This document shows, in pieces, positions 1-27,738 of a DNA stretch of 64,000 nucleotides (positions are counted from its first letter, which is position 1; every line of letters begins with the position of its first letter). This DNA comes from Lentisphaerota bacterium (GTDB taxonomy: Bacteria > Verrucomicrobiota > Kiritimatiellia > CAIQIC01 > Lenti-01). The notes under the pieces are model-generated. The model ran no database searches. It saw nothing but the letters and a program-made list of their open reading frames with translations, and was not told where the DNA came from. Made by a program: the position numbers and the translations under genes. The stretch spans positions 31,077 to 95,076 of the forward strand of contig JAAZBB010000015.1 in NCBI GenBank assembly GCA_012514035.1. The letters are read 5' to 3'.

Positions 1-2
1 TC

Positions 3-158
3 ACGCTCGCCGATTTTCACCGCCTGCTGGATTCGTCTTCCGCGCCTGAGCCCGTGAAACAGCGCCTGCGGAAACTGGACGTGTGCTCCTATACCGGACT
101 GGCCGCGCGCATCTGCCGCGATGTTGTGACCGCCGCCGAGCAGGAGGTTCCGGATTGA
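3..158 (+). CDS. 3' end of an unidentified upstream gene (partial; continues left of window)
   Basis: Open frame from the window edge to a TGA at 156-158 that overlaps the purD TTG start (TTGA). The 51-aa tail has no recognisable family. Confidence 0.3.
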   Translation, partial: TLADFHRLLDSSSAPEPVKQRLRKLDVCSYTGLAARICRDVVTAAEQEVPD

Positions 159-1396
159 AGATTGCCGTCATCGGCCGCGGCGGGCGGGAACACGCCCTCG
201 CCTGGAAGCTGGCGCAAAGCGCCGGAACCGGCAACGTGTACTGCTTGCCCGGCAACGGCGGGACCCCGAACAACCGCCCCGTCGCCGAACACGATTATCC
301 GGCCATCCGCGCATTTTGCGCGGCCGAGGGCGTCGAACTTGTCGTCGTGGGGCCCGAGGCCCCGCTGGCCGGCGGCATCGTGGACGCGCTGGGAGGCGGG
401 CGCTTCCGGATTTTCGGTCCGTCGCACGCGGCGGCCCGTCTGGAGGCATCCAAGACGTGGGCCAAGCAGTTCATGCTGCGCCACGGCATCGCCACCGCCG
501 TTGGCGCTTTTTTTTCGTCTCCGCGCGCCGCGAGCCCGCACGTCCGCGCTCAGCCGGGCGGCATGGTGGTCAAGTACAGCGGTCTCGCCGCCGGCAAGGG
601 TGTATTCATCTGCAGCACCCCCGGCGCCGCGCTTGACGCCTTGAAGAAAATCGAAGCCCGCCACGGCGCGGACGCCCCCGTCGTGGTCGAGGAATTGCTG
701 GAAGGTCCCGAGGTCTCCGTCATGGGTCTCACCGACGGCCGGACCATCCAGTTGCTTCCGCCGTCGCGCGACCACAAGCGCCTGCTCGACGGGGACCGCG
801 GCCCCAACACCGGCGGCATGGGGGCCTACACACCCGTGCCCGACGTGGACGCGGCCACCATGGCGGAAATCCACCGGACCATCATCGCCCCTACGCTCGC
901 GGGGCTGGCCAAGGACGGTATCGAGTACCGCGGCTTCCTGTATTTCGGCCTGATGCTGACTGCCGCGGGGCCGAAGCTGCTGGAGTACAACGCGCGGCTG
1001 GGCGATCCGGAAACCGAGGTGCTGCTGCCCGCGCTTGACGGCGATCTGCTGGCGCCGATTCTGGCCTGCTTCGACGGTACGCTGGAGAAGCACCCTTTGG
1101 CCGCCAGACCCGGCGCGGTTCTCGATGTCGTGCTCGCGGCCGGCGGCTATCCGGGCGACATCCGCAAGGGCGATCCAATCACCGGAATTGAACAGGCTGA
1201 CGCGCTGGTGTTCCACACGGGCACCGCAATCCAGAACGGCCAGCTCGTCACCTCCGGCGGGCGCGTGCTGAACGTGGTCGCCCACGGCGCCGACCTCGAA
1301 TCTGCACGCCGCAAGGTCTATGCCGCGTGCGGGAAAATCCATTTTGAAGGCATGCAGTATCGCACCGACATCGGGCAGGGGAGGGCGTCGGCGTGA
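155..1396 (+). CDS. purD: phosphoribosylamine--glycine ligase
   Basis: Translation LKIAVIGRGGREHALAWKLAQS... has the ATP-grasp PurD N-terminus. Start inferred as TTG 155 inside the longer track ORF 83..1396. The stop overlaps the purN start. Confidence 0.88.
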   Translation: MKIAVIGRGGREHALAWKLAQSAGTGNVYCLPGNGGTPNNRPVAEHDYPAIRAFCAAEGVELVVVGPEAPLAGGIVDALGGGRFRIFGPSHAAARLEASKTWAKQFMLRHGIATAVGAFFSSPRAASPHVRAQPGGMVVKYSGLAAGKGVFICSTPGAALDALKKIEARHGADAPVVVEELLEGPEVSVMGLTDGRTIQLLPPSRDHKRLLDGDRGPNTGGMGAYTPVPDVDAATMAEIHRTIIAPTLAGLAKDGIEYRGFLYFGLMLTAAGPKLLEYNARLGDPETEVLLPALDGDLLAPILACFDGTLEKHPLAARPGAVLDVVLAAGGYPGDIRKGDPITGIEQADALVFHTGTAIQNGQLVTSGGRVLNVVAHGADLESARRKVYAACGKIHFEGMQYRTDIGQGRASA

Positions 1397-2007
1397 TTCC
1401 GCGCATCGCCATCCTGATATCCGGCCGCGGCAGCAACATGGTCGCGCTGGCCGAAAGCGTGTGTAGCGGGGTGCTGGCCGGGTGCTGCGAAATCGCGGCT
1501 GTGATCTCGAGCCGCCCCGGCGTTCCGGGGCTTGCCAAGGCGCAGGAACTGGGCCTGCCGATCGTCGCGCTCGACGCCCGCGCCTTGGGCAAGGAAGCCT
1601 ATGACGCCGCCTTGCTGCTGGCCCTGGAACAGGCCCGCGCCGACGTGGTTGTGTTGGCCGGATACCTGCGCATTGTTTCGCCGCGGGTGGTCGCAAAATA
1701 CCGCGGCCGGATTTTGAACATCCACCCGGCCGACACGAAGCTCCACCAAGGACTCCACGGCTACGAGTGGGCCTTCGCCAACGAATTGGCTGCGACGAAA
1801 ATCACCGTCCATCTCGTGGACGAAGGCCTCGACACCGGCCCCGTCCTCGCGCAGCGCGAGGTGGATCTCCGCGGCACAGGCATCCTCGAAGAAGTCGAGC
1901 GCCGCGGCCTCGCCGTCGAACACCGGCTTTATCCCGAAGCCTTGAAAACCTTTTTAACTACGAATTACCCGAATTTCGCGAATGGAACCCCATCCTGTGA
2001 ATCCTGA
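1393..2007 (+). CDS. purN: phosphoribosylglycinamide formyltransferase
   Basis: IAILISGRGSNM...HPADTKLHQGLHGYEWA is the PurN family. GTG start overlaps the purD stop (GTGA). The last ~17 codons are encoded by the CGAATT/ATCCTG repeat element. Confidence 0.85.
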   Translation: MIPRIAILISGRGSNMVALAESVCSGVLAGCCEIAAVISSRPGVPGLAKAQELGLPIVALDARALGKEAYDAALLLALEQARADVVVLAGYLRIVSPRVVAKYRGRILNIHPADTKLHQGLHGYEWAFANELAATKITVHLVDEGLDTGPVLAQREVDLRGTGILEEVERRGLAVEHRLYPEALKTFLTTNYPNFANGTPSCES

Positions 2008-2042
2008 ACCATCCTGTAATCCTGTCTAAAAAAAATATAATT

Positions 2043-3476
2043 ATGTGTGGAATCCTGGGCATCATCGGACACGACGACATCGCCGGCACGCTGCTGGAGG
2101 GCCTGACAGCGATCCAGCACCGCGGCCAGGACGCCGCCGGCATTGTCACCTTCAACCACCGCTTTCACCTGCACAAGGCCGACGGGCTCGTCAGCCAGGC
2201 CTTCAAAAAGGTGGACCTGGCGCGGTTTTCCGGCCGGATCGGGCTGGGTCACGTGCGCTACGCCACGCAGGGCTCGACCGACGTGCTCGATGCGCAGCCG
2301 ACGGTGGTGATGTATCCCTTCGGCCTTGCGATGGTCCACAACGGCAACGTTGTCAACTTCAGCCAGCTCAAGCAGACGCTCTGCGAGGATGCCCACCGTC
2401 TGCTGGACACATCCAACGACGTGGCCCTGATCCTCTACGCCCTCGCTGCCGCGCTTGAAACCAAGAATCTGAAAGCTCTGACTCCCGACGCCATTTTCGA
2501 TTCGGTGCAGGCGGTGCAGGACAAGGTGCAGGGCGCGTATTCGGCGCTGACGATCATCGCTGGCCACGGTCTGCTGGCCTTCACCGATCCCCACGGCATC
2601 CGGCCGCTGGTGCTCGGCCGCAAGTACACCGACCGCGGCATGGTCTACGCCTTTGCCTCGGAAACCGACTGTTTCGATTATCTCGGCTTCGAGCTGATGC
2701 GCGACCTGCGGCCCGGCGAGGCCGTGCTGATCGACACCGCCGGCAAGGTCCACAGCCGGATCTGCCGCGCTGGACCGCAGGCCTTCTGCGTGTTCGAGTA
2801 CATCTACTTTGCGCGCGAGGATTCGGTGATCAACGGACGGCTGGTGGCCAGCGAACGCGTGTGCCTCGGCCGGCAGCTCGCCGAGCAGGTCCGCAAGGCG
2901 GGGCTCCAGCCCGACATTGTGATTGATGTGCCCGCGTCGGCCTATTTCTTCGCCTCCGGAATGGCAGAGGCGCTGGGCGTGCCTTACCGCCGCGGGCTCG
3001 CCAAGAACAACCACATCGGCCGCAGCTTCATCGTGCCGAACCAGGCGCGCCGCGAAAAAATCGTGCGCCAGAAGCTCAACCCGCTCAAGGATGTTGTGCG
3101 TGGCCGAAAGGTGGCGGTTGTGGACGACTCGATCGTGCGCGGCACGACCTCGAAGCACATCGTCAAGCTTCTGCGCGAGAGCGGCGCCGCCGAAATCTAC
3201 TTCGTTTCCGCGGCGCCGCCGATCACGTGCCCCTGCATCTACGGCATCGACATGTCCGTCAAACGGGAGATCATCGCCGCCCATTACGATCCCAGGCAGA
3301 TCGCCCGCTATCTCGAAGCCGACGCCGTCATCTACCAGTCGCTCGACGACCTGCGCGCGCGCTACTGCGATCTGCCCTGCTGCTATGCCTGCTTTTCGGG
3401 CGAGTATCCCACCGGCGCATCGGAGGAAGTCCTCAAGCAATTCGAACAGGAGAAGGAATGCTCCGCCCGGATCTAG
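2043..3476 (+). CDS. purF: amidophosphoribosyltransferase
   Basis: MCGILGIIGHDD... with Ntn-hydrolase Cys2 and a PRTase domain (VVDDSIVRGTT). Confidence 0.95.
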   Translation: MCGILGIIGHDDIAGTLLEGLTAIQHRGQDAAGIVTFNHRFHLHKADGLVSQAFKKVDLARFSGRIGLGHVRYATQGSTDVLDAQPTVVMYPFGLAMVHNGNVVNFSQLKQTLCEDAHRLLDTSNDVALILYALAAALETKNLKALTPDAIFDSVQAVQDKVQGAYSALTIIAGHGLLAFTDPHGIRPLVLGRKYTDRGMVYAFASETDCFDYLGFELMRDLRPGEAVLIDTAGKVHSRICRAGPQAFCVFEYIYFAREDSVINGRLVASERVCLGRQLAEQVRKAGLQPDIVIDVPASAYFFASGMAEALGVPYRRGLAKNNHIGRSFIVPNQARREKIVRQKLNPLKDVVRGRKVAVVDDSIVRGTTSKHIVKLLRESGAAEIYFVSAAPPITCPCIYGIDMSVKREIIAAHYDPRQIARYLEADAVIYQSLDDLRARYCDLPCCYACFSGEYPTGASEEVLKQFEQEKECSARI

Positions 3477-5329
3477 AACACATCGCCGTCCTCGATTTCG
3501 GCGGGCAGTACGCGCACCTGATCGCGAACCGCGTGCGCGGGCTGGGCGTCTACTGCACCGTGCTGCCGCCCGAGAATTTTCGGCCGGGCGCCGATCCGCG
3601 CCTCGCCGGCCTGATCCTCTCCGGCGGCCCGCAGTCGGTGTCCGCCGACCACGTGGCCCTGATGCAGCCCCGGCTCGCGGGCTTCACCAAGCCGATCCTC
3701 GGGATTTGCTTCGGCCACCAGTTGCTCGCCAAACTGTTCGGCGGCGGCCTCGCCCGCGGCCGCGAACGGCAGTACGGTCCCACACCCATCCGCTGCGATC
3801 CGAGGACGCGGCTCTTTCATGAATTGCCGGCGGAGCAATTGGTTTGGATGAGCCACGGCGACCACGTCGCCCAGCTGCCGGACGGCTTCCGTGCCACGGC
3901 GTCAGCCCCCACGTGCGCCATTGCGGCCTACGAGGCGGAAGGCCGCCCCGTCTTCGGCCTGCAGTTCCATCCCGAAGTCGTCCACACCCCCCATGGCAGC
4001 GCCATGCTCAGGAATTTCCTCGAATTGTGCGCCATCCGCACGCCATGGATCCCCGAAAGCATGAAGCAACGCGTCATCGGGCAGACCCGCCAGGCGGCCG
4101 GAGATGCCATGCTCTTCCTGCTGGTCTCCGGCGGCGTGGATTCGCTGGTGACGTTGCAGGTATGCATCGCGGCCGTCGGTGCCGACCGCGTCCGCTCACT
4201 GCACGTGGACACCGGCCTGATGCGCCTCGGCGAGTCGGATGACATCCTGAAATTCCTCGCCGCCGAAGGCTTCCGCAACATCGAAATCGAACGCGCCGAG
4301 CCGGTCTTTTTGCGCGAGCTCGCCGGCGTGGCCGACCCGGAGCAAAAGCGCGCCATCATCGGCCGCCTGTTTGTCGAAGTCCTGCGGAAGAAATTGCAGG
4401 CGCTGAACCTCGGCGACAACTGGAAACTGGTGCAGGGCACGATCTATCCCGACACCATCGAAAGCGGTGGCACCCCGAACGCCGCCAAGATCAAGACTCA
4501 CCACAACCGCGTGCCGGAAATCCAGGCCATGATCGAGCGCGGACTCGTCGTCGAACCCCTGCGCGAACTCTACAAGGACGAGGTCCGCCGGCTCGGCCGC
4601 GAACTCGGCTTGCCGCAGGCCCTGCTCGACCGCCATCCGTTCCCCGGCCCCGGCCTTGGCATCCGCCTGCTCTGCCACGACGGCCAAACGCCAGTGCCCC
4701 CGGAATTCGCCGATCAGCCGCGGCTTGACCACATTTTGCAGTCTGGAGCCGGGACGCCCTCGTCCCGGAAATCTAAATCCACCCGACGAGGGCGTCGGGT
4801 CTCCATTTTGCAAGGCCGCATCCTGCCGGTGAAGAGCGTCGGCGTGCAGGGCGACGAACGCTCCTACCGCCATCCGGCCGTGATCTGGAACCCGGCCGGC
4901 AAACTTCCGGATTGGCCAATGCTCAACACCCTCGCCAACCGGCTCGTCAACGAATTGGCCGACATCAACCGCGTCGTGCTCTGCCTCGACGACCTGACCC
5001 GCGAGCACTTCGAGCTGCGCAAAATGTTCGTCACCCGCGAAGGACTTGATCGGTTGCGCCGGGTGGACGACCTCCTGCACAGTTGCATCGCGCACATCCC
5101 GGAAATCTGGCAGGCGCCGGTCATATCGCTGCCGCTGTTCGACCGGCAGGGCAACCAGGCTTTCGTGCTGCGTCCGGTCTGCTCGAAGGATGCCATGACG
5201 GCCGACGTGTATCCCATCGCTTTCGATTTGCTGGCCGAGCTGGCTGAAAAAGTCCGCGCCGTGCCTGGCGCCGGGCACCTCTTCTACGACCTGACCACCA
5301 AACCGCCGGGGACCATCGAATGGGAATGA
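3458..5329 (+). CDS. guaA: GMP synthase (glutamine-hydrolysing), long form with duplicated C-terminal dimerisation-like region
   Basis: Class I GATase (GICFGHQLL, HPEV), PP-loop SGGVDS, C-terminal KPPGTIEWE. ATG 3458 overlaps the purF 3' end by 19 nt. 623 aa against a typical ~520. Confidence 0.88.
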   Translation: MLRPDLEHIAVLDFGGQYAHLIANRVRGLGVYCTVLPPENFRPGADPRLAGLILSGGPQSVSADHVALMQPRLAGFTKPILGICFGHQLLAKLFGGGLARGRERQYGPTPIRCDPRTRLFHELPAEQLVWMSHGDHVAQLPDGFRATASAPTCAIAAYEAEGRPVFGLQFHPEVVHTPHGSAMLRNFLELCAIRTPWIPESMKQRVIGQTRQAAGDAMLFLLVSGGVDSLVTLQVCIAAVGADRVRSLHVDTGLMRLGESDDILKFLAAEGFRNIEIERAEPVFLRELAGVADPEQKRAIIGRLFVEVLRKKLQALNLGDNWKLVQGTIYPDTIESGGTPNAAKIKTHHNRVPEIQAMIERGLVVEPLRELYKDEVRRLGRELGLPQALLDRHPFPGPGLGIRLLCHDGQTPVPPEFADQPRLDHILQSGAGTPSSRKSKSTRRGRRVSILQGRILPVKSVGVQGDERSYRHPAVIWNPAGKLPDWPMLNTLANRLVNELADINRVVLCLDDLTREHFELRKMFVTREGLDRLRRVDDLLHSCIAHIPEIWQAPVISLPLFDRQGNQAFVLRPVCSKDAMTADVYPIAFDLLAELAEKVRAVPGAGHLFYDLTTKPPGTIEWE

Positions 5330-6663
5330 AGTTTCAAATCCGAAATGCCTGCTGGCTCGGCGACGACGCCTGGTTCCACCACGGCACAATTTCCATCGCG
5401 AACGGTCGCATCATGAAGCTGGAGAGCGACTTTGCCAGCGACACGCCATCCGCCGGCGAATTCATTGTGCCGGGGCTGATCGATGCCCACGTCCACCTGC
5501 GCGAGCCGGGGCAACCCTACAAGGAAGGCATCGCCAACGGGACGCTCGCCGCGCTCAAGGGCGGCGTGACCACCGTGCTCAACATGCCCAACAACGTGCC
5601 GCCGACCGCCTCCCTCGCGCGGCTCGAAGCCAAGCGCGCGCTGTTCGCCCAAAAATCGCGCGTCAACTACGGCCTGTTTTTGCAGGCCCGCATCGGCGGC
5701 CCGCGCGCGCCGGAGAGTGCCGCCGGCGTCAAGATCTACATGGCCAAATCGTCCGCCCTGGCCGCGGTCCGCGACCCCGCCGCTCTCGCCCAGATCTTCC
5801 GCCTTCAGAACCGCGTGGTCGTCCACGCCGAGGACGAGCGGGAGTTTTCCACAGGGTGGAAAAAAAGTTTCCACAGGGTGGAAAAAACGGGCGAAATTTT
5901 CCACAGTGTGGAAAAAAGTTTTCCACAGTGTGGAAAACTTCCCCATCACCTGCGCCGGCCGCGGGCGGCGGTGGTTGCGGCCTTGCAGAGCATCGCCACG
6001 GCCTGGCGGCGGGTGCCACCGAAAGAGCGGCCGCGGCTGGTCATCGCCCATTGCAGCACCGTCGAGGAAATCGACTGGGTGCGGAAGATGAAGCGGCAAG
6101 GCCACGACGTTTGGGCCGAAACCTGCCCGCACTATTTCCTGTTCACCGAACAGGATGATCGCGCGCGCGGCCCGGCATTGCAGGTGAATCCGCCGCTGCG
6201 GACCGAAGAAGACCGCGCGGCGGTTTTTGCGGCGGTGCAAGACGGCGGCATTGATTTCATCTCGACCGATCACGCGCCGCATTTGCCGAAGGAAAAGGCG
6301 GCGGACTCGCCGCCGTCGGGCATCGCGGGCCTGGAATGGTTCGGGCCGGTTTTGCTGACGCTGACCATGCGCGGGGAAATCTCGTGGCAGCGCTACCTAA
6401 AGCTGGCCGGCCAAAAGGCCGCGCAGTGCTACGGGATCGAAGGCCGCGGGCTGGTGCGCGAAGGCGCTTGGGCCGATCTGGCGATCGTGGCGAACAAGCC
6501 GCCGGCGGCGGCCCAGGAAAAAATCGTGACCCGTGCAGCGGTTCACCCCTATCCGCAGTTCGAATTCGCCGTCGGCATTCGGGCTACGCTGGTCAACGGA
6601 CGGCTGGCATGGACGGATGGGCGCGTGCGACCCGGCGTACACGGCAGGGAGGTGTATGGGTGA
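5320..6663 (+). CDS. pyrC: dihydroorotase (amidohydrolase superfamily)
   Basis: DAHVHLREPG HxH motif, VHAEDE, TCPHYF, STDHAPH. Sits in pyrimidine gene context. Carries an in-frame AT-rich tandem repeat at 5845-5938. Confidence 0.8.
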   Translation: MGMKFQIRNACWLGDDAWFHHGTISIANGRIMKLESDFASDTPSAGEFIVPGLIDAHVHLREPGQPYKEGIANGTLAALKGGVTTVLNMPNNVPPTASLARLEAKRALFAQKSRVNYGLFLQARIGGPRAPESAAGVKIYMAKSSALAAVRDPAALAQIFRLQNRVVVHAEDEREFSTGWKKSFHRVEKTGEIFHSVEKSFPQCGKLPHHLRRPRAAVVAALQSIATAWRRVPPKERPRLVIAHCSTVEEIDWVRKMKRQGHDVWAETCPHYFLFTEQDDRARGPALQVNPPLRTEEDRAAVFAAVQDGGIDFISTDHAPHLPKEKAADSPPSGIAGLEWFGPVLLTLTMRGEISWQRYLKLAGQKAAQCYGIEGRGLVREGAWADLAIVANKPPAAAQEKIVTRAAVHPYPQFEFAVGIRATLVNGRLAWTDGRVRPGVHGREVYG

Positions 6664-7280
6664 AGACCGACACGCGGCAATTTGTTCAGTTTCTCGTGGA
6701 CAGCGGCTGCCTGAAGTTTGGCGACTTCCAGCTCAAGTCCGGCGACCGTTCGCCGTTCTTCGTCAATCTCGGTCAGGCCGACAGCGGGGCCAAGCTGGAC
6801 GTACTCGGCCGTGCGCTGGCCGCGGCGGCGGCCGCGGCGTTTCCGCAGGCGACGCTGCTGTTCGGGCCGGCCTATAAGGGCATTGCGCTGGCGGTGGCCA
6901 CGGCGGCCGCGGCGTGGCGGCACCACAACCGCGATTTCCGGTTTTTCTACGACCGCAAGGAGGCCAAGACGCACGGTGAGCGCGGGCTGTTCATCGGGCA
7001 TCTGCCCCAGCCCGGCGAGGCGGTGGTGTTGGTGGACGACGTGCTGAGCGACGGCGGTACCAAGGTGGCGGCCATGGCGGCGATCGAAGCCGCGTTCCAG
7101 ACCCGCCCCGTCGGCATCGTGGTGGCCGTAGACCGGCGCCGGCGCGCCACGCCGCTGCCCACAGGCCTGCCTCCCGTGGCGGCGGTCGTTACGCTGCCCG
7201 ACCTGTGCGACTACCTCGCCGAGACCGGCGACGCCGTCCGCCTGAACGCCATGCAAAAATTTTACGAAGGAGAAAAGTGA
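6660..7280 (+). CDS. pyrE: orotate phosphoribosyltransferase
   Basis: FVQFLVDSGCLKFGDFQLKSGDRSPFFVN...VLVDDVLSDGGT PRTase motif. Start inferred as GTG 6660 overlapping the pyrC stop. Confidence 0.82.
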   Translation: MKTDTRQFVQFLVDSGCLKFGDFQLKSGDRSPFFVNLGQADSGAKLDVLGRALAAAAAAAFPQATLLFGPAYKGIALAVATAAAAWRHHNRDFRFFYDRKEAKTHGERGLFIGHLPQPGEAVVLVDDVLSDGGTKVAAMAAIEAAFQTRPVGIVVAVDRRRRATPLPTGLPPVAAVVTLPDLCDYLAETGDAVRLNAMQKFYEGEK

Positions 7281-8032
7281 TGGCCAAGCAATACAAAATC
7301 ATTCCTGCGCTCGACACGGCCGACCTCGGCGCGGCGCTGCGGCTGGTGTGCCGCGTGGCGGGGCGCGAATCCGTCTACGGTTTCAAGCTGGGCTTCGCGC
7401 TGGGGCTGGGCCATGGCCTGCCCGAGACCGTCCGGCGCATTCGCGAGTGGACCGACAAGCCCCTGATCTACGACCACCAGAAGGCGGCCACCGACATTCC
7501 AGACACGGGTGCGCTTTTCGGCGACGTGATGAAAACGGCCGGCATCAACGAGGTGATCCTGTTTCCGCATACGGGCCCGCGCACGCTCGCGGCGTGGACG
7601 CAGGCGCTGCAGGAACGGGATCTCAAGGTCATTGTCGGCGCGGTGATGACGCATCCGGCCTATCTGGTATCGGAAGGCGGGTTCATCGCCGACGCGGCCG
7701 CGGCGGCGATCTGCAAGCAAGCGGCGGGATTGGGTGTAGCGGCGTTCGTGGTGCCGCTGACCAAGCCGGAAGTCGTGGCCAAATTGGCGCAGGAGGTGCC
7801 CTTCACGGTCCAGCAGGAATTCTACTCGCCGGGCTTCGGCGCGCAGAAAGGCGACCCGGCGCGGTTTCCAATGCTGGCCAGGCATTACCTGATCATGGGC
7901 CGGTCGCTGCTTGCCGCCGCGGACCCGGCGAAGGAACTGGCCAACACCGAAAAACAACTGGGAATAGGAGAGGCGACAGGATCCACAGGATGGACAGGGA
8001 TAAAAGCAGGATCGAAATCCTGTACATCCTGA
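7280..8032 (+). CDS. pyrF: orotidine 5'-phosphate decarboxylase
   Basis: IIPALDTADL...LIYDHQKAATDIPDTG (D-x-K-x-x-D-I-P-x-T motif). ATG overlaps the pyrE stop. C-terminal tail is encoded by the CAGGAT/ATCCTG repeat block. Confidence 0.75.
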   Translation: MAKQYKIIPALDTADLGAALRLVCRVAGRESVYGFKLGFALGLGHGLPETVRRIREWTDKPLIYDHQKAATDIPDTGALFGDVMKTAGINEVILFPHTGPRTLAAWTQALQERDLKVIVGAVMTHPAYLVSEGGFIADAAAAAICKQAAGLGVAAFVVPLTKPEVVAKLAQEVPFTVQQEFYSPGFGAQKGDPARFPMLARHYLIMGRSLLAAADPAKELANTEKQLGIGEATGSTGWTGIKAGSKSCTS

Positions 8033-8060
8033 TCATCCTGCAATCCTGTCTAGAACGAAT

Positions 8061-8996
8061 ATGAAAAAAGACCTGATCTCGATTGACGACCTGCGGCTGG
8101 AGCAGATTCTGAACTATCTCGACCTCGCGGCGCGGGTGGCGGCGATTCCGGACGCGGAAAAGTTCCGTTTCCTGCCGGGGCGGATTCTGGCGACGCTGTT
8201 CTTCGAGCCCAGCACGCGCACACGGCTGAGCTTTGAATCGGCCATGACCCGGCTCGGGGGACGGGTCATCGGGTTTTCGGAGGCGGCGGGCTCCTCGACG
8301 GCCAAGGGCGAATCGTTCTCCGACACGATCCGGACAGTGGAGCAGTATGCCGATATCATCGCAGTGCGGCACCCGAAGGAGGGCACAGCGCGGCGGGCGG
8401 CCGAGATCAGCCGCCTGCCGATCCTCAACGCCGGCGACGGCGCGAACCAGCACCCGACCCAGACGCTGCTGGACCTCTACACGATACGCAAGTTCTTCGG
8501 CCAGGTGGACGGCCTGCGGATCGCATTGGTGGGGGATTTGAAATATTCGCGCACGATCCATTCGCTGTGCCGGGCGCTGCTGATGTTCGACGGGGTGGCC
8601 ATGACCCTGGTGTCGCCCGAGAGCTTGAAACTGCCCGGCTACCTGCTGAAGGCGGCCAAAGGAACAACGGCCACCTTCCGCGAGACCAGCAGCCTGGAGG
8701 AGGCCATCCGCGAAACCGATCTCGTCTACATGACCCGCATTCAGAAGGAGCGTTTTCCCGACGTGGTGGAGTACGAAAAGGTCAAGGATGCCTATGTGCT
8801 GGAGGCCGGAATGCTCGCCGGCGTACCGGCCCGCTTCAAGGTGCTGCATCCGCTGCCGCGGGTGAACGAGATTTCGCCGGACGTGGACGCCACGCCGCAT
8901 GCGGGCTATTTCGAGCAGGCCCGCAACGGCGTGATCATGCGCGAGGCCCTGATCCTCGACTTGCTCGATGCCCGGCCGGCAAGGAGCACGCCATGA
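8061..8996 (+). CDS. pyrB: aspartate carbamoyltransferase catalytic subunit
   Basis: STRTRLSFE, HPTQTLLDLYTI and HPLP motifs. Confidence 0.95.
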   Translation: MKKDLISIDDLRLEQILNYLDLAARVAAIPDAEKFRFLPGRILATLFFEPSTRTRLSFESAMTRLGGRVIGFSEAAGSSTAKGESFSDTIRTVEQYADIIAVRHPKEGTARRAAEISRLPILNAGDGANQHPTQTLLDLYTIRKFFGQVDGLRIALVGDLKYSRTIHSLCRALLMFDGVAMTLVSPESLKLPGYLLKAAKGTTATFRETSSLEEAIRETDLVYMTRIQKERFPDVVEYEKVKDAYVLEAGMLAGVPARFKVLHPLPRVNEISPDVDATPHAGYFEQARNGVIMREALILDLLDARPARSTP

Positions 8997-9472
8997 CTCC
9001 CCAGAGCCAGATTCTCCTGATTCCCAAGATCGAATGCGGCTATGTGATCGACCACATCCCGGCCGGGCTCGGCATCCAGGTCATGGCGCTGATCGGGTGC
9101 CATCCGGAGCTGGAGGCAGCCGTGGTGACGCTGGGCCTGAACTACAAGAGCACGCGGATGGGCCGCAAGGACATGATCAAGCTGCAGACGAAATCCCTGC
9201 CGCCGCGGCTGCTGCAAATGCTGGCGCTGGTGAGCCCTGGCGTGACCATCAAGCGCATCGCCAACTATGAGGTGGTCGAGAAGGTCGTGATCCAGGTGCC
9301 GGAGCTGTTTGACAATCTGGCGCGCTGCATCAACCCCAACTGCATCACCAACGTCGAGCCGCACATCGGGACGCGCTTCAAGCGGCTGGAATCCGGTTCG
9401 CGGCATTTCAAGTGTGCGCACTGCGAGCGCGTCTGCACGCTCGACGAACTGGCGGGGCACCTCAAGGCATGA
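8993..9472 (+). CDS. pyrI: aspartate carbamoyltransferase regulatory subunit
   Basis: MTPQSQILLIPKIECGYVIDHIPAG... and a C-terminal Zn-binding Cys cluster (CINPNCITN...CAHCER). ATGA overlap with pyrB. Confidence 0.9.
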   Translation: MTPQSQILLIPKIECGYVIDHIPAGLGIQVMALIGCHPELEAAVVTLGLNYKSTRMGRKDMIKLQTKSLPPRLLQMLALVSPGVTIKRIANYEVVEKVVIQVPELFDNLARCINPNCITNVEPHIGTRFKRLESGSRHFKCAHCERVCTLDELAGHLKA

Positions 9473-10401
9473 ATCCGCTAGCCGTCCGGATTGCCGGAAT
9501 CGCGCTTGAATCGCCGCTGGTGCTGGCGTCGGGGGTGCTGGGTACGACAGCATCCTCGCTGCGGCGGGTGGCGCAGGCGGGCGCGGGGGCGGTCACGACG
9601 AAGTCGTGCAGCCTTGCGCCGCGCCCGGGGCATCCGGCCCCGTGCATCCTGCCGTGGAAGGGCGGGATGCTCAACGCCGTCGGGCTGTCCAATCCGGGCA
9701 TCGAGGGCGCGCTGGAGGAAATTACCGAATACCGGCGGACCTGCCGGACGCCGCTGTTCGTCTCGATCTTCGCGGGCAGCCCGGCGGAGTTCGGGGAATT
9801 GGCGCAGCGGGTTGCGGCGGCCAAACCGGATTTGATCGAAGTCAACGTGTCCTGCCCGAACGTGGAATCCGAATTCGGCGCGCCCTTCGCCGCGGACCCC
9901 GCCGCCTGCGCGGCGGTGACGCGGGCGGTGAAGGAGAACGCCGGCGGCATTCCGGTTTCCATCAAGCTCGCGTCGCAGTGTGCCTCCATCGCGAAAATGG
10001 CGGAGGTCTGCCAGCGGAGCGGGGCGGACGTGCTCACGGCCATCAACACGGTCGGCCCGGGGATGTGGATTGATCCCGGCGCCGGCCGGCCGGTGCTGTC
10101 GAATCTTGTCGGCGGCGTTTCCGGAACGGCCATCCTGCCCATCGCGGTGCGGGCGGTCTACGAAATCCGCCGCGCGGTGGATTTGCCGATCATCGGCACG
10201 GGCGGGGTGTCGTGTGCGGCGGATGCGCTGCAACTGATCATGGCCGGGGCGGACGCCGTCGGCCTCGGCAGCGCCATCTACGGCGGCGGAATCGGCTTGT
10301 TCGACGAGATCAATCGAGGATTGGCCGATTTCCTCCAGAGCCGGGGATATCAGTCCCTGCACGAGGTTCATGGAATGGCGCACGAAAAAGGCAAGCCATG
10401 A
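9469..10401 (+). CDS. pyrD: dihydroorotate dehydrogenase catalytic subunit (class 1B)
   Basis: TIM-barrel DHODH motifs (GVLGTT, NTVGPG, IGTGGV). Followed by a pyrK-like gene. ATGA overlap with pyrI. Confidence 0.9.
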   Translation: MNPLAVRIAGIALESPLVLASGVLGTTASSLRRVAQAGAGAVTTKSCSLAPRPGHPAPCILPWKGGMLNAVGLSNPGIEGALEEITEYRRTCRTPLFVSIFAGSPAEFGELAQRVAAAKPDLIEVNVSCPNVESEFGAPFAADPAACAAVTRAVKENAGGIPVSIKLASQCASIAKMAEVCQRSGADVLTAINTVGPGMWIDPGAGRPVLSNLVGGVSGTAILPIAVRAVYEIRRAVDLPIIGTGGVSCAADALQLIMAGADAVGLGSAIYGGGIGLFDEINRGLADFLQSRGYQSLHEVHGMAHEKGKP

Positions 10402-11195
10402 AAAGTTTGGCATTGCCCAGTCATGAAATGCACACGCTGCCGATCGAGGACATCGTCGTCCACCACGAAGGGCTGAAGAGTTACCTGTTCCGCCAGACGT
10501 TCGATATCGAGCCGGGGCAGTTTGTGATGCTGTGGCTGCCGGGCGGGGACGAGAAGCCGTTTTCGGTGTCCGATGTGCGAGACGGGCGGATCGAAATCAC
10601 CGCCCGGGCGGTCGGACCGTTTTCACGCGCGCTGATGGCCTGCAAGGTCGGCGGTTTTCTCGGCTTGCGCGGGCCGTTCGGACGCGGTTTCCGTCCGCGC
10701 GGGCGCGGGCTGATCGTGGGCGGCGGCATAGGCATCGCGCCGCTGCGCTATCTGGTCCACCGGCTGGCGCAGGACGGTATGGAATGCCAAATCGCCCTTG
10801 GCGCGCGCACGGCCCGGGAGTTGATGTTTGCCGCCGACTTTGTACGCCGGGGGGCGCGGCTGGCGACGGATGACGGGAGTTTGGGCGAAAAAGTCATGGT
10901 GCTGGCGCTGGCCGAACGGCTGTGTGCCGCCGAAAAGTTTGACGTGATCTACGGTTGCGGGCCGGAGGTCCTGTTGGTCGGGCTTCATCAGTTGGCGGCG
11001 ACAGTTGGCTGCGACTGCCAGCTTGCGCTGGAACGCCACATGAAGTGCGGGATCGGCATCTGCGGAAGCTGTTGCGTGGACGGCAGCGGCATCTGCATCT
11101 GCCGCGAAGGGCCCGTGCTAGATCGCGCGGAGCTGGACCAGGTGGCGGATTTCGGCCGGCCGCATCGCGACGCCACCGGAGCCCGGAAGAATTGA
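10398..11195 (+). CDS. pyrK: dihydroorotate dehydrogenase electron-transfer subunit
   Basis: FAD/NAD-binding fold plus a C-terminal 2Fe-2S Cys cluster (CGIGICGSCCVDGSGICICREGP). ATGA overlap with pyrD. Confidence 0.85.
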   Translation: MKSLALPSHEMHTLPIEDIVVHHEGLKSYLFRQTFDIEPGQFVMLWLPGGDEKPFSVSDVRDGRIEITARAVGPFSRALMACKVGGFLGLRGPFGRGFRPRGRGLIVGGGIGIAPLRYLVHRLAQDGMECQIALGARTARELMFAADFVRRGARLATDDGSLGEKVMVLALAERLCAAEKFDVIYGCGPEVLLVGLHQLAATVGCDCQLALERHMKCGIGICGSCCVDGSGICICREGPVLDRAELDQVADFGRPHRDATGARKN

Positions 11196-11233
11196 CCGAC
11201 CAACCTGCTCCCGATGCAGTCCGGGAACTGGCG

Positions 11234-12109
11234 TTATGTCAGCCGGAGCATGCGGAGCCAGTCGCGGAAATCGCGCGGGAGGGGGGCGGCGGCCGAGACG
11301 GTTCGGCCGGTGACAGGATGCCCGAAATGCAGTTCCGAGGCATGCAGCATCTGGCGGGGCACGCCGGGAAAATCGGCGCTGCGGGCGCTGAAGTATTGCC
11401 GGTCGCCCAGGATCGGGTGCCCGATGTGGTGCAGATGGATCCGGATCTGGTGGGTGCGGCCGGTTTCGATGGCAACCGTGACATGCGCGCTGCGCGGCGG
11501 ACGTGTTTGCACGGCAACCTGTCGCACGTGGCTGACGGCGGGCAAGTGGTCCACGGGTACGCGGATGTCCAGTTGAGGTTCAGGCAGGTTGCCGGCGACC
11601 AGCGCATGATACCGCTTGCGGACCCGGCCTTGCTCGAACTGGGCGATCAACGCGCGGCGGGTGTCTTCGTCCTTGGCAAAAAGCACGCACCCGGAGGTGT
11701 CCTTGTCGAGACGGTGGACGGCCCGCAGGGCGGGCAGGCCAAGCTGATCGCGCAGGCGGGCTTCCAGGGATTTTTCGCCGGTGGTGAGCAGTCGCGGCGG
11801 CTTCTCGGCCACGAGAAAAAGCGGATCGTCCAGCAGGATGCGGACGGCGGCGGCCGTGGCCGGCTGGGGGGCCAGGGCGGCGGCGAGCACTTCGACCGCG
11901 TCGCGGGTCTGGAGCAAATGCCTGGCCATCCAGATGCGCCGGCCGTTGACGAACACCAGGCGGTCATCGAGCAGACTTTTGGCTGCGCGTCGCGAAAGGC
12001 CGAGGTGTTCCGCCAAATGAGCCAGCAATTCCGTCCCGTTGCGCCGCGCGGGCGGCAGGCGGCGAAGGGCGGGGGTGCGGGGTGCCGGGCGTTTCATGCG
12101 GGGCAACAT
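11234..12109 (-). CDS. RluA-family 23S rRNA pseudouridine synthase (S4 domain plus catalytic domain)
   Basis: HRLDKDTSG catalytic motif and an N-terminal S4-like region. Confidence 0.85.
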   Translation of the reverse strand: MLPRMKRPAPRTPALRRLPPARRNGTELLAHLAEHLGLSRRAAKSLLDDRLVFVNGRRIWMARHLLQTRDAVEVLAAALAPQPATAAAVRILLDDPLFLVAEKPPRLLTTGEKSLEARLRDQLGLPALRAVHRLDKDTSGCVLFAKDEDTRRALIAQFEQGRVRKRYHALVAGNLPEPQLDIRVPVDHLPAVSHVRQVAVQTRPPRSAHVTVAIETGRTHQIRIHLHHIGHPILGDRQYFSARSADFPGVPRQMLHASELHFGHPVTGRTVSAAAPLPRDFRDWLRMLRLT

Positions 12110-12123
12110 AGCGCGGCGCAGGG

Positions 12124-12828
12124 TCAGCCGTCGAGGCGGAAGGGGGAGAAGCGAGTGCGGGTGTCGTAGGGATCGGACTGTTCGGCGCGCTTGAGGCGGT
12201 GCACGATCCAGTAGGTCAGCGGAGTCGCCAGGACTTCATAAGCGGTCTTGAGCAGGAAGTTCCAGCAGGCGACCCGGACCACGAGTTGGACCGGCCAGAC
12301 GCCGCCGAAGGCAAGGACGGTGAAGAGGAGCGAATCCAGGCCTTCGCCGGCGATGGTGCTGCCGATGGTACGCATCCAGAGATGGCGGCCGGTCATCCAG
12401 ACCTTCATCTTGGCCATGACCCAGGCATTCAGAAACGAGCCGCACCAGAAGGCAACGAGACTGCCGAACACGACCCGCGGAGTTTGAAGAAGAATAGCGG
12501 CAAAGGCGTCCTGCATCTCCCAGCCGGGGGCCGGGGGCAGCAGCGCAACCAGCGAAAAAGCGGCTGCCGCGAAGAAGTTCAGGGCAAACCCCAGCCAGAT
12601 GACGCGTCGGGCCTGGGCGTATCCGTACACTTCAACCAGGATGTCGCCGAAAATGTAGGAGACCGGAAACAGCAGGTTGCCGCCATCCATCGTGATGAAC
12701 GGCAACCCGGGAAGAGTCAGGGGCTTGATGGCGCTGACGTTGGAAACGACCAGCACGGTGCAGAACACCGCGCTGATCGGTCCCAGCCAGCGCCGGGCGG
12801 AAACGGGGAAGGATTCCCCGGAGGGCAT
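12124..12828 (-). CDS. yhhQ: queuosine precursor transporter (YhhQ/Vut_1 family)
   Basis: FPVSYIFGDILVEVYG signature in a polytopic membrane protein. Confidence 0.78.
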   Translation of the reverse strand: MPSGESFPVSARRWLGPISAVFCTVLVVSNVSAIKPLTLPGLPFITMDGGNLLFPVSYIFGDILVEVYGYAQARRVIWLGFALNFFAAAAFSLVALLPPAPGWEMQDAFAAILLQTPRVVFGSLVAFWCGSFLNAWVMAKMKVWMTGRHLWMRTIGSTIAGEGLDSLLFTVLAFGGVWPVQLVVRVACWNFLLKTAYEVLATPLTYWIVHRLKRAEQSDPYDTRTRFSPFRLDG

Positions 12829-13712: not shown

Positions 13713-13892
13713 GGGCTCGATTCCTTGGATACCGCCGGATTTCACCTGGGCGCCGGGTACGGGGCCTGCAGGAATCCAGCGCCATAAACATAGCGCGGCG
13801 GACGGTGGCAATTCCAGCAAATTTCCGCAAACACTTGCCTGGCGCCAGGGGGGCGGGTTGCTTCTGCACGCGGGCCGGAGCCGGAGGAATGC

Positions 13893-14942: not shown

Positions 14943-14949
14943 CCGCCTC

Positions 14950-16671: not shown

Positions 16672-16690
16672 AACAGCCGGGGAACCTTAA

Positions 16691-17101
16691 CTACGAATTA
16701 ATCGAATTGCACGAATGGGAAGGGGCTAGAAAACGTTCATATTCCAATTTGGGATAGTGACTGAAATTGACCAGCAAAGCCAGTATCTTGCCGGTAGCTT
16801 TCAGGTAATTGATGACTTGGGCGCGGTGTTCGTCGCTCAAGTTCTTTGCCGACTTGATTTCCACGATGATTTTATCGAAACAGAGAAAATCCGGTTGATA
16901 AGTTTGTTTGAGGGATTTCGTTTTGTAGCACAGTTTCAGTTGGGGATGCTCGATAAATGGGATGCCTTGATCTCTGAACTCCATTGCCAGGCATTCCTGA
17001 TAGACCGCTTCCAGGAATCCGTGTCCCAATTGATTGTAGACTTCGAAACAGGCTCCAACGATCTTGAAGCTTTCTTCCTTGAACAGGATTTCGGTTTTCA
17101 T
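16691..17101 (-). CDS. GxxExxY protein (PDDEXK_3 nuclease-superfamily-like)
   Basis: GACFEVYNQLGHGFLEAVYQECL matches the GxxExxY signature. Local GC is roughly 40% against ~65% in the flanks. Its ATG lies inside a 27-bp terminal inverted repeat. Confidence 0.7.
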   Translation of the reverse strand: MKTEILFKEESFKIVGACFEVYNQLGHGFLEAVYQECLAMEFRDQGIPFIEHPQLKLCYKTKSLKQTYQPDFLCFDKIIVEIKSAKNLSDEHRAQVINYLKATGKILALLVNFSHYPKLEYERFLAPSHSCNSINS

Positions 17102-17141
17102 TCGTTTAATTCGCGCAATTCGTAGTGGGTCTTCCGGCGGT

Positions 17142-17927: not shown

Positions 17928-17991
17928 GGGGGCTTCGGAAACAGAATATTCAATATCCAACATTCAATGTCCAATGTCCAGGCGGGGACGG

Positions 17992-18864: not shown

Positions 18865-18987
18865 TGAGGGGTATCCTTGTGCAACGGGTTTGGGGGGCAT
18901 TATAGCGGTTGGGATCGGCACGCAAACCTTTTTCGCCCGGGACCGTCCCCAGGAATAAAAGATGAAGCGCAGCGGAAATAAGGTAGA

Positions 18988-27292: not shown

Positions 27293-27738
27293 CCGCAGAG
27301 GACCGCAGAGGAACACAGAGAAATATCCCGTGCTTAGCAGGAAAACAGGAAACCCAGGAAAACAGGAAGGGAATGATAGCCATTTTTCTATCACGCGAAG
27401 GCATGAAACCACCGGCTGCGGACAGGGAAGGCAGGGACGCCACTGAAACCTTCTCACGCTGAAGCGGGTACTAATAACGAGTTGTGTTTGTAGTCCAGCC
27501 TTTCAGGCTGCAAATTCGGCTTTTTATCGCGAAAAACGCCCCTTTTTGATGAAAATTTCAATAAATTGCCGGATTTTTGATTATTTTGCCTAAAAAATGC
27601 CTAAAAAATGCCAAAAATATGCCAAATTTTCCTGTTTTCCTGTTTTTCCTGCTTTCTTGCTTCGGTTTTGGGCTGTTCCTCCTGTAAATTTTGAAAAATT
27701 CTGTTCCTCCTGTCTAAATTCTTAGTAATTTGACCAAA
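27293..27738. promoter_or_regulatory. AT-rich structured intergenic region with inverted (CAGGAAAA)x3 / (TTTTCCTG)x3 arrays and TGCC-A6 tandem repeats
   Basis: 27338-27369 CAGGAAAACAGGAAACCCAGGAAAACAGGAAGG and 27627-27652 TTTTCCTGTTTTCCTGTTTTTCCTGC are inverted. TGCCTAAAAAA appears twice in tandem. TTCCTCCTGTCTAAATT appears twice before the ATG at 27739. Confidence 0.5.

Follow-up and report, generated by a model that had tools for sequence, protein, structure and literature searches.

Orphan arms of two dispersed palindromic repeat families probably separate purN and purF in a Lentisphaerota operon

Structure of the purN-purF junction

Why does an operon of largely overlapping genes carry phased short repeats between purN and purF? 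The window, that is the whole stretch of DNA analysed (64,000 nt from a Lentisphaerota bacterium), contains purN (phosphoribosylglycinamide formyltransferase; 1393..2007, + strand), identified by its ORF and by profile searches, followed by purF (amidophosphoribosyltransferase; 2043..3476, + strand), the product of which begins with MCGILG. From purB to pyrB the genes overlap by 4 nt (purB/purD), 4 nt (purD/purN), 19 nt (purF/guaA), 10 nt (guaA/pyrC), 4 nt (pyrC/pyrE) and 1 nt (pyrE/pyrF); gaps of 35 nt and 28 nt, filled with arrays in both cases, are found at purN-purF and pyrF-pyrB. Over this range the original prediction, that starts and stops overlap everywhere except before purF and pyrB, where arrays intervene, was correct.

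Direct reading and motif mapping agreed that TTAACTACG begins at 1954, and the order downstream is TCCTGTCTA, an A-run, TATAATT and the purF ATG at 2043. Motif mapping assigned positions 1954..1985 (+ strand) to a solo 5′-type arm of a CGAAT family, TTAACTACGAATTACCCGAATTTCGCGAATGG, with three 9-nt CGAAT(T/G) units at 1961, 1970 and 1979, both intervals being exactly 9 nt. Positions 1986..2028 (+ strand) comprise a linker and a solo 3′-type arm of an ATCCTG family, with units at 1992, 2001, 2011 and 2019 (spacing 9, 10 and 8 nt) and the family terminus AATCCTGTCTAA at its end. The remaining 14 nt (2029..2042, + strand), AAAAAATATAATT, form an A/T-rich spacer directly 5′ of the purF start, which is not conserved. 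Both arms are without a partner, and the two lack mutual complementarity. Their orientation is that expected of arms flanking a cassette co-transcribed with the operon. The CGAAT arm has its final ATG at 1981-1983, as does the arm upstream of the GxxExxY gene described below, and a mini-ORF of 15 codons, ATG to TAA (MEPHPVNPEPSCNPV; 1981..2028, + strand, read from the sequence), runs from the end of the 5′-type arm to the end of the 3′-type arm; no other ORF content was found at the junction.

The phased arrays and the A-run before the purF ATG were thus confirmed where they had been proposed, and shuffling placed the words above chance. ATCCTGNNNATCCTG, with at most one mismatch, has 6 matches in the window against 0.25 expected (6 or more in 0 of 100 shuffles), and CGAATTNNNCGAATT has 7 against 0.57 expected, a number reached in 0 of 100 shuffles. 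TRF flagged only the CGAAT array, weakly (score 32), and missed the ATCCTG array because of its irregular unit spacing. G + C falls to 0.48-0.53 at the junction, compared with about 0.65 in its surroundings.

The repeat-encoded PurN tail

The PurN and formyl-transferase profiles stop at residues 190 and 184 of 204; therefore the last 14-17 or so codons fall beyond the domain, within the repeat, in agreement with the approximately 17 codons originally proposed to be read from it. The C-terminal tail (1963..2007, + strand; about 14 residues past the domain, plus stop codon) ends in LTTNYPNFANGTPSCES, and the purN stop codon, TGA at 2005-2007, is located within the ATCCTG 3′-type arm segment. Among 120 homologues the PurN tails were found to be mosaics of array-encoded peptides in differing frames, and in the 82 closest they are CGAAT-coded, ATCCTG-coded, coded by both, or directly overlap purF. 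In three relatives (loci L122, L123 and L126) the tail ends in NPVNPEPSCNPV and reads the conserved 3′ part of the mini-ORF stretch (...NPEPSCNPV, then stop) in the frame of the mini-ORF, which may be what is left of a collapsed cassette ORF. Since the odd PurN tail is repeat read-through, annotation pipelines should not count it as a domain.

Complete copies in the window

A related array had been expected before pyrB, and one is present as a CAGGAT/ATCCTG hairpin. This gene-less, complete palindrome of the ATCCTG family (7968..8052, + strand) consists of about four CAGG(G)AT-type units followed by four ATCCTG units and a final AATCCTGTCTAG, and the terminus of the ATCCTG arm at purN-purF recurs in it. 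Its RNA has a predicted folding energy of -38 kcal/mol (z = -3.7). Translation places the last 20 or so codons of PyrF within the palindrome.

The second complete copy encloses an unrelated gene some 15 kb from purN-purF. It is a cassette on the − strand (16689..17128), with a GxxExxY (PD-(D/E)XK_3) ORF at 16691-17101 between inverted CGAAT arms. The arms (16690-16717 and 17099-17126) are 28 nt long and 82% complementary, with arrays at 16694 and 17099, and in the MFE and centroid structures alike they pair as the closing stem (z = -3.1). The gene starts at the ATG of CGAATG, its stop codon TAG lies inside the 3′ arm, and its G + C content is 44%, compared with 63% for the window. The protein matches TIGR04256 (137 bits) and PF13366 (E = 5e-40); at the sequence level it has a PD-(D/E)XK nuclease fold with the D...E-x-K motif intact.

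Dispersal of the two families

Further genomic copies, for which a motif search had been proposed, were indeed found. CTACGAATTNNNCGAATTNNNCGAATG occurs at more than 117 genome loci, a lower bound among the matches listed, and by our own estimate the pattern would be expected by chance less than once in 596 Gb. Its carriers, among the matches listed, belong to Bacteroidota, Verrucomicrobiota, Kiritimatiellia, Chloroflexota, Acidobacteriota and Bacillota, and at least 37 of 123 CGAAT instances have a strict inverted partner. ATCCTGNAATCCTGTCTA was found at more than 120 metagenome loci, with a partner arm at most 130 nt away in 72 of 130 instances; the metagenome loci of this ATCCTG family are mostly palindromes of the form TTAGACAGGATT...AATCCTGTCTAA. 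Each arm has 2-4 tandem units of 7-10 nt, and the palindromes (47-132 nt, median 66) are either empty or enclose a small gene. They end in TTA...TAA or TTAAC...GTTAA, letters that may belong to the arm or represent a duplicated TA or TTAA. Because of the AAC...GTT ends, integron attC sites were considered as well and rejected, the core-site consensus being a poor fit by eye and no integrase being found; to our knowledge, attC sites are without tandem words.

Array copies lie mostly at gene 3′ ends and follow no orientation rule. A similar array was found as an in-frame insert in PyrC, and in relative L123 a PF05635 gene (23S_rRNA_IVP/S23p, four-helix-bundle) at 11522-11884 is located between pyrC and pyrE and flanked by CAGGA(G/T)T and A(C/A)TCCTG arms. 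A four-helix-bundle homologue was sought in the loci fetched and was seen in L123 alone. In a sample of plasmid GxxExxY genes picked without regard to arrays, the copies of Bacteroides finegoldii, Bernardetia and Treponema have inverted word-array flanks and sit between housekeeping genes on the same strand.

Viral contigs gave only 4 and 1 matches to the repeat patterns, and hence no sign of a phage vehicle. Neither cargo gene (GxxExxY or PF05635) matched a known transposase. No copy polymorphic for presence or absence within a species was caught and no target-site duplication could be defined, so mobility is inferred from distribution only. An ungapped comparison of the arms of 54 metagenome palindromes found imperfect complementarity, many 5′ CAAGAT or CATGAT units facing ATCCTG, so that the chief constraint may be something other than hairpin formation. 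No clear compensatory pattern between the arms emerged from the same 54 palindromes, a comparison in which the 3′ arm was biased by the search pattern and the register was disturbed by indels.

Comparison with related genomes

The same CGAAT + ATCCTG composite was found between purN and purF in three relatives, with different PurN reading frames through the arms. Composite arms are 84-100% identical among these orthologues, compared with 58-67% at fourfold sites. The CGAAT arm shows 84-97% identity and has 2 or 3 units, and the core at 2001-2028 is identical at 27-28 of 28 positions in four species, the fraction at fourfold sites being 0.58-0.67 (P about 1e-5 to 1e-7). The spacer at 2029..2042 is only 50-57% identical to that of the orthologues, which is the neutral level. 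Paralogous arms within the source genome are less alike, at about 80% by hand count from the window sequences.

Other relatives differ at this site. In L125 it is empty and purN overlaps purF by 16 nt; L124 has a perfect CACGGATGA-type hairpin with a paired closing stem (-57 kcal/mol, z = -6.2); in L128 an ATCCTG array is enclosed by CAGAGGT/ACCTCTG arms; L129 combines a related CGAA array with a CAACCA array; and L127 has a tandem duplication. Judged by sequence, this junction is a target for insertions that undergo turnover. A dead remnant should decay, and these arms do not; therefore some function or conversion process appears to remain. The strong conservation of the orphan arms suggests either that the words are recognised or that they are kept close to the consensus of the family by selection or conversion, and conserved unpaired arms offer a concrete handle for finding their recogniser.

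Regulatory and other alternative readings

Regular phasing had been likened to iteron or operator arrays. The arrays could be bound by a sequence-specific protein, in the manner of operators, iterons or transposase ends, the phased 9-nt words recruiting a multimer and the bound protein altering operon transcription or local DNA handling at the junction. The exact 9-nt phasing of the CGAAT units is consistent with this, as are the near identity of the words across phyla, the PD-(D/E)XK fold of one cargo protein with its intact motif, and the imperfect pairing of arms, which fits repeated protein sites better than a selected helix. The orphan arms, moreover, are conserved with no pairing partner and through differing PurN frames, which would place the constraint on the words themselves. 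However, no candidate binding protein is tied to the junction, unit number varies between 2 and 3, close relatives have other words or no array, the prevailing position at gene 3′ ends without fixed orientation does not favour such sites, and nothing ties the arrays to purine control. We therefore consider this reading unlikely in its general form. As an operator of the purine operon it was abandoned, since the same arrays flank the GxxExxY gene and occur across phyla at unrelated loci, while relatives have other words or nothing at this junction; no regulator gene was found in the operon. A trans-acting protein may recognise the arms and, if so, would do so across the family and not specifically in the pur operon.

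An internal promoter or attenuator had also been suggested, and a wider version would make the element a promoter or translation-initiation module for purF, in which an AT-rich, G-poor, unstructured leader replaces coupling and possibly supplies a -10 box. The local dip in G + C, the TATAAT at 2035-2040, the folding of the 136-nt junction RNA, less structured than its shuffles (z = +1.1; z = -0.96 for 89 nt), and the lack of a Shine-Dalgarno sequence before purF in every composite-bearing species are in its favour, and promoters are known on some MITEs (Correia; PMC10969869). A scan of positions 1-18000 for sigma-70 promoter and intrinsic terminator consensus, the promoter type covered being sigma-70, nevertheless found nothing at 1954-2042, neither a -35/-10 pair nor a terminator-like site on the + strand. 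Only 2 nt separate TATAAT from the ATG, which would place the transcription start site inside the ORF, and the hexamer is absent from the orthologues. The 14 nt beside the ATG are neutral and the conserved part is the arms further upstream; solo ATCCTG arms show no preference for positions upstream of same-strand starts (of 58 arms, 15 have a same-strand ORF within 60 nt downstream, and more follow stop codons); and the empty-site relative copes with overlapping genes. On the position of the solo arms and the neutrality of the 14 nt, a 5′ leader module was rejected as the main explanation, and a purF promoter or initiation module seems to us quite improbable. An attenuator is contradicted by the RNA, which is no more structured than its shuffles.

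Rfam gave no hit at the gathering threshold anywhere in the window except one tRNA, there is no rRNA in the window, and permissive searches found nothing in 1850-2150 (E <= 5) or 27150-27750. A kinship of the CGAAT and ATCCTG words with the T-arm, suggested by their likeness to TTCGAATCCTG, was dropped after a tRNA scan gave only distant tRNA-Thr and tRNA-SeC genes.

Local slippage or duplication of native sequence such as the purF start TGTGGAATCCTG, giving a low-complexity spacer unrelated to other loci, would account for the resemblance of the purN stop context TGTGAATCCTGA to the purF start TGTGGAATCCTGG, for the purN genes of empty-site relatives that end inside the purF start (...CAAS or ...CAES), for the variable unit copy number and for the tandem duplication in L127. 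It is very hard to reconcile with the finding that the 18-mer ATCCTGNAATCCTGTCTA and the 27-mer CGAAT pattern recur, with identical ends and inverted partners, at hundreds of unrelated loci, or with the same arms bracketing cassette genes, and we regard it as highly improbable.

Proposed origin of the junction

The best explanation, which we hold to be probable, is that the purN-purF junction consists of two orphan arms, inserted from two related dispersed palindromic repeat families, and is not a purine operator, promoter or attenuator. The purN-purF pair would ancestrally have overlapped, and the repeat arms would have been inserted between the two genes. In complete repeats the inverted arms either adjoin and form a hairpin or surround a single small AT-rich gene, the cargo being a GxxExxY nuclease-fold protein or a four-helix-bundle S23p/Avd-like protein. 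At this locus purN is uncoupled from purF: PurN continues into the repeat to the first stop and gains a non-conserved tail, and the purF start now lies behind a mostly unstructured stretch of low G + C. As the two arms come from different word families, a simple collapse of one cassette would need an extra recombination or deletion step that was not observed.

Full copies such as the pyrF-pyrB hairpin and the GxxExxY cassette would put long stems into the polycistronic RNA, and these are probably cut by RNase III, by analogy with rRNA intervening sequences and Correia elements. The orphan arms at purN-purF would be incapable of forming such stems or of being cut in this way, and are predicted to form no hairpin, terminator or recognisable promoter. 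For this locus the outcome is deflationary, with no hidden purine operator or attenuator. More widely, the arms make variable protein tails (PurN and PyrF), break translational coupling and can put long double-stranded RNA stems into polycistronic messages.

A bolder extension, unlikely in our judgement, is that array-armed palindromes with or without cargo form one unnamed, multi-phylum class of IVS-like mini-elements, the words being recognised by a trans-acting factor and the purN-purF arms being a functional binding or processing site. Candidates for the factor are the GxxExxY PD-(D/E)XK protein, with a part in homing or transposition, and a protein of the host that binds RNA or DNA. If so, these elements would colonise operon junctions and even coding regions.

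Relation to known elements

A literature search for the repeat sequences themselves gave no match, and three known systems come closest. Cyanobacterial STRR sequences consist of tandem units of about 7 bp, are capable of forming hairpins and occur between the co-transcribed genes hupS and hupL; of unknown function, they have been proposed to act in transcript stability or in translational coupling (PMC2670836). The elements described here share with them tandem units of 7-10 nt, the capacity to form hairpins and a position between co-transcribed genes, but STRR units differ and their hosts are filamentous cyanobacteria; no link to GxxExxY or four-helix-bundle cassettes is described in the parts of the STRR literature consulted.

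MITEs and other palindromic repeats (Correia/NEMIS, ERIC, REP/BIME and RPE) are likewise small, dispersed and intergenic, with inverted arms, and are co-transcribed with their neighbours; Correia elements can be cleaved by RNase III, and Rickettsia palindromic elements (RPE) are read into host proteins (PMC10969869). The terminal inverted repeats, small size and many copies typical of MITEs are all found here. Unlike MITEs, the present arms are made of tandem 7-10-nt words that vary by element, near-identical words span several phyla, no related transposase-bearing parent was seen, and there is no clear target duplication.

The nearest likeness is to the intervening sequences (IVS) of 23S rRNA in Coxiella, Leptospira and Salmonella, with terminal inverted repeats, a stem of about 28 bp and a small ORF. 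In Coxiella the IVS is closed by a 28-bp terminal inverted-repeat stem and contains an S23p ORF and, before the ATG, 2-3 tandem GACAGAT heptamers that differ in copy number by strain; RNase III cuts at the first repeat, and the element is regarded as selfish (PMC4990558). Short tandem repeats of variable copy number just 5′ of the ATG are found here also, the GxxExxY cassette of the window has a similar predicted RNA fold, and the cassette of L123 carries cargo of the same Pfam family, PF05635. A closing stem of the IVS type is present in 16689-17128, in 7968-8052 and at the L124 junction, and absent at purN-purF; an S23p/23S_rRNA_IVP ORF in the loop is found in L123, whereas the window cassette has GxxExxY instead. 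Unlike IVS, the elements here occupy junctions of protein-coding operons (and one the inside of pyrC) and not rRNA helices 25/45, the cargo may be a GxxExxY nuclease-fold protein or none, and the purN-purF copy has unmatched arms only; RNase III excision, known for IVS, is putative here. The biology of such a family of small selfish cassettes is essentially unstudied, and GxxExxY is sparsely covered in the literature searched. The same kind of short-word arms surround GxxExxY and S23p-like genes in operons of distant phyla with an anatomy that matches that of rRNA intervening sequences, and this analogy suggests that small selfish cassettes form a broader family, of which rRNA intervening sequences represent one habitat.

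The purN-purF junction

The window (G+C ~63%) begins inside a conserved operon ordered purL-purQ-purCE-purB-purD-purN-purF-guaA-pyrC-pyrE-pyrF-pyrB. In it purN occupies 1393..2007 and purF starts at 2043, and the stretch between and across the two genes reads TTAACTACGAATTACCCGAATTTCGCGAATGG AACCCCATCCTGTGAATCCTGAACCATCCTGTAATCCTGTCTAA AAAAAATATAATT ATG. Motif mapping located CGAAT(T/G) units at 1961, 1970 and 1979 and ATCCTG units at 1992, 2001, 2011 and 2019, in agreement with the original prediction of phased repeats; each motif was strongly over-represented in the window against shuffles. The PurN profile match ends at residue 190 of 204, and therefore the tail, ...NYPNFANGTPSCES and stop, is read from the repeat, as had been proposed. 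An identical PurN is present on GCA_036791855.1 and a close homologue in a Lentisphaerae MAG. It had also been claimed that the genes overlap except before purF and pyrB, and this holds over the stretch purB-pyrB, where the genes at six junctions share 1-19 nt and only purN|purF (35-nt gap) and pyrF|pyrB (28-nt gap) are open, both filled by arrays.

The purN stop context TGTGAATCCTGA (1999-2007) and the purF start TGTGGAATCCTGG (2046-2058) almost match, and in relatives with an empty site the purN stop falls within the purF start (tails ...CAAS or ...CAES). This likeness may be due to chance, CCTGTGAATCCTG fitting the family consensus too, or alternatively may be microhomology that guided insertion.

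Other arrays in the window

A search for further copies found two more CGAAT arrays and, before pyrB, an ATCCTG array in the window, and families across phyla. The CGAAT copies (16690-16717 and 17099-17126) are mutually inverted and enclose an AT-rich 136-codon ORF (44% G+C) for a GxxExxY / PD-(D/E)XK_3 protein (TIGR04256, 137 bits; PF13366). The last CGAATG unit provides its start ATG, and the far arm contains its stop TAG; in the cassette RNA the arms pair as a closing stem in both the minimum-energy and centroid folds (z = -3.1).

The ATCCTG copy at pyrF|pyrB (7968-8052) is a complete palindrome, in which a short loop joins about four CAGG(G)AT-type units to four ATCCTG units, ending with AATCCTGTCTAG 11 nt before the pyrB ATG. 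Its predicted fold is -38 kcal/mol (z = -3.7), and it supplies the last ~20 codons of PyrF (tail GIGEATGSTGWTGIKAGSKSCTS and stop). The words of its 5' arm, ACAGGAUG, appear to resemble CsrA-type GGA sites.

A further array-armed element lies at 27292-27662. Its left side is made of ACCGCAGAGG x3 and CAGGAAAA x4, its right side of TTTTCCTG x4; the 33-nt arms are 88% complementary and surround ~260 nt of AT-rich DNA with TGCCTAAAAAA x3.4, and the content had no Rfam match at E <= 1. Within pyrC (5320-6663), four palindromic units TTTTCCACAG(G/T)GTGGAAAA at 5845-5937 encode FHxVEK-type repeats in frame within dihydroorotase; by alignment, their number varies across orthologues, with one at L125 and more at L123 and L124 (loci of relatives). 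The relaxed DnaA-box TTWTNCACA had 6 matches in the window versus 1.5 expected, five of them from these units; the cumulative GC skew has its minimum at the same place, near 5.8 kb, and a ParA-like ORF is located at 17992-19065. The units could be a coding-region repeat insertion, an origin-related feature, or both.

History of the junction among relatives

The junction at L125 represents the empty state: purN runs 16 nt into purF and takes its tail ...DENGRKTCAAS from the start of that gene. The window and three relatives (L122, L123 and L126) share a composite of CGAAT arm, ATCCTG arm, TCTAA, 11-14 nt and ATG, with two CGAAT units in L123 and three in the others. Small indels shift its frame, so that the tail ...NPVNPEPSCNPV reaches TCTAA in three species and halts earlier, at TGA, in the window. 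By purF fourfold sites, L122 and L123 have a closer relative in L124 than in the window; despite this closeness, the L124 junction carries a perfect AACCACGGATGA x3 / TCATCCGTG x3 hairpin (-57 kcal/mol, z = -6.2) and TTCAACC repeats. Other relatives have CAGAGGT/ACCTCTG arms enclosing an ATCCTG...TCTAA array (L128), a CGAA array with a CAACCA array (L129), or a tandem duplication of ~57 nt that comprises the 3' end of purN with its CGAA array (L127, 3000-3166; tail ...PEALRMFLTTKFTNHTNEEWPEALRTFLTTKFTNHTK and stop).

Among the 82 closest PurN homologues, tails were of varied array-coded types or overlapped purF: 24 overlapped purF directly, 17 were CGAAT-coded, 15 ATCCTG-coded and nine coded by both arrays, four were CGAAT-coded and overlapped purF, one had all three features, and 12 were classed as other. 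The varied arrays, the empty site and these tail classes indicate that purN|purF is, judging from sequence comparison, an insertion hot spot with turnover, and that the PurN tail is apparently incidental read-through. The left boundary of the insertion lies in the Leu codon that follows ...K-T-F. Carriers have TTA there and the empty site CTG, which would fit elements starting TTA(AC) and finishing (GTC)TAA.

Conservation of the unpaired arms

Across the window, L122, L123 and L126, the core 2001-2028 is identical at 27-28 of 28 positions in every pair and the CGAAT arm is 84-97% identical, against 58-67% for purF fourfold-degenerate sites between the window and the other three (binomial P about 1e-5 to 1e-7). 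The 14 nt adjoining the purF ATG are at the neutral level (50-57%). PurN does not read the arms in one constant frame, so the constraint acts at the level of the nucleic acid. By our own count, the paralogous ATCCTG arm at pyrF|pyrB matches the one at purF at only about 80% of positions, and the spacers between its units are different; this speaks against simple homogenisation within the genome. In metagenome palindromes arm-to-arm pairing was imperfect, without clear compensation, in a comparison where the search pattern biased the 3' arm and indels disturbed the register.

The word families beyond the window

Scanning one genome per species with the exact pattern CTACGAATTNNNCGAATTNNNCGAATG gave at least 117 CGAAT loci, versus fewer than one expected by chance on our own estimate. 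Those among the matches listed were mostly from rumen or gut Bacteroidales, with others in Verrucomicrobiota, Kiritimatiellia, Chloroflexota (Herpetosiphon, Anaerolineae), Acidobacteriota and Bacillota, and included a few clearly coincidental coding matches, e.g. in Alphaproteobacteria. Many listed were hairpins of the form (TT)AACTACGAATT...CGAATG - loop - CATTCG...AATTCGTAGTT(AA), and at least 37 of the 123 instances listed had a strict inverted partner. A Verrucomicrobiota MAG (L106) carries an orthologue of the window cassette, with the same MBL-fold gene, the array and a GxxExxY gene 78% identical. In rumen Bacteroidales (L004, L020, L023, L062, L073, L112 and ~20 others) the array often directly follows ATGAAA(A/G)GRAA, would translate with it as MK(R/G)NYELHEFDEW..., and is succeeded by a conserved segment, GAATTTTGCRGC...GCYGCGAAT; the whole may be a small ORF or a structured repeat.

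The ATCCTG scan (ATCCTGNAATCCTGTCTA in metagenomes) gave at least 120 loci, those listed spanning G+C 0.29 to 0.67. In its typical form the element is TTAGACAGGATTACAGGATT..CAGGATT - loop - AATCCTG..AAATCCTGTAATCCTGTCTAA, each arm containing about four 9-nt units; a partner arm lay within 130 nt in 72 of the 130 instances listed, the remaining 58 being solo arms. Listed elements were mostly at gene ends, with no bias to positions upstream of same-strand starts. At two metagenome loci (L195, 2400-5000, and L204) an ATCCTG arm and a ~30-nt spacer ttgtttgcgcccagctaagcccaacacc form a unit that recurs tandemly in many copies; the spacers are alike, and the arrays are therefore not CRISPR-like. The L195 array adjoins a GxxExxY gene. 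Viral contigs had almost no matches to either family.

Nature of the junction element

The original prediction took the repeats for iterons or an operator, or for an internal promoter or attenuator. A purine-specific operator does not accord with arrays that also flank a GxxExxY gene, precede pyrB and span several phyla. As to a promoter or attenuator, scanning detected no sigma-70-like promoter or intrinsic terminator at 1954-2042; the TATAAT at 2035-2040 ends 2 nt short of the ATG and is missing in orthologues. Junction RNA had no structure beyond shuffles (136 nt, z = +1.1; 89 nt, z = -0.96), Rfam had no match at the junction, in a permissive scan either, and the two arms, being of different word families, cannot pair with each other. 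By these results the purN|purF element is neither an operator or iteron for purine genes nor a promoter or attenuator. What survives of the DNA-binding-protein idea is that arms conserved above neutral, read in differing frames, and with diverged paralogue spacers, leave room for a trans-acting factor reading the repeat words; if so, it would be family-wide and not purine-specific.

We consider it fairly probable that orphan arms of array palindromes, similar to intervening sequences (IVS) or MITEs, make up the junction, and that they were inserted between two genes which ancestrally overlapped. The locus itself is then ordinary, and the points of interest are the conserved unpaired arms and the cassette family behind them.

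Relation to small-gene cassettes and known systems

The pyrC-pyrE junction at L123 contains an inserted gene for a four-helix-bundle protein (PF05635, S23p/Avd-like family), with GGATTCAGGAGTCAGGATTCAGGAG upstream and ATCCTGAATCCTGACTCCTGAAT downstream. The 5' arm of this element (11487-11922) supplies AGGAG 6 nt ahead of the ATG, and the 3' arm (CTCCTG/ATCCTG), which closely precedes the next gene, resembles an anti-Shine-Dalgarno sequence.

GxxExxY genes at the fetched loci, a biased sample picked for having arrays, were flanked by word arrays or whole array hairpins. In an array-independent sample of such genes on plasmids and chromids, inverted arms were found in Bacteroides finegoldii (CACAGAGGA-type) and Bernardetia (CACAGAGA-type), one inverted ACACGGATTCG pair in Treponema, ~50-nt direct repeats on a Fusobacteria plasmid and AATCC arrays in Persicobacter; a high-G+C Gemmatirosa record was uninterpretable. 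A same-strand annotated neighbour was present in all four annotated records (Bacteroides, Bernardetia, Treponema and Fusobacteria). At one locus (L103) differing word modules, AACCACTGAGGCACTGATG, AACTACGAATTGCACGAATTGCACGAATG and AACTACAGACGGCACGGACTGCACGGAC, lie side by side, the GxxExxY gene has an ACAGATA-type hairpin of its own on each side, and words across families share a CAC-N-GA-N-like skeleton.

The array-armed gene cassettes have the same anatomy as the 23S rRNA IVS of Coxiella, in which a 28-bp terminal inverted-repeat stem accompanies an S23p ORF, two or three tandem GACAGAT heptamers, differing in number by strain, precede the ATG, and RNase III cleaves at the first heptamer repeat (PMC4990558). 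By analogy, the window's complete copies probably exert their effect in the RNA, as long stems that RNase III could cleave. Further analogues of the array palindromes are the cyanobacterial STRR hairpins between hupS and hupL (PMC2670836), and MITEs such as Correia and the Rickettsia palindromic elements (PMC10969869).
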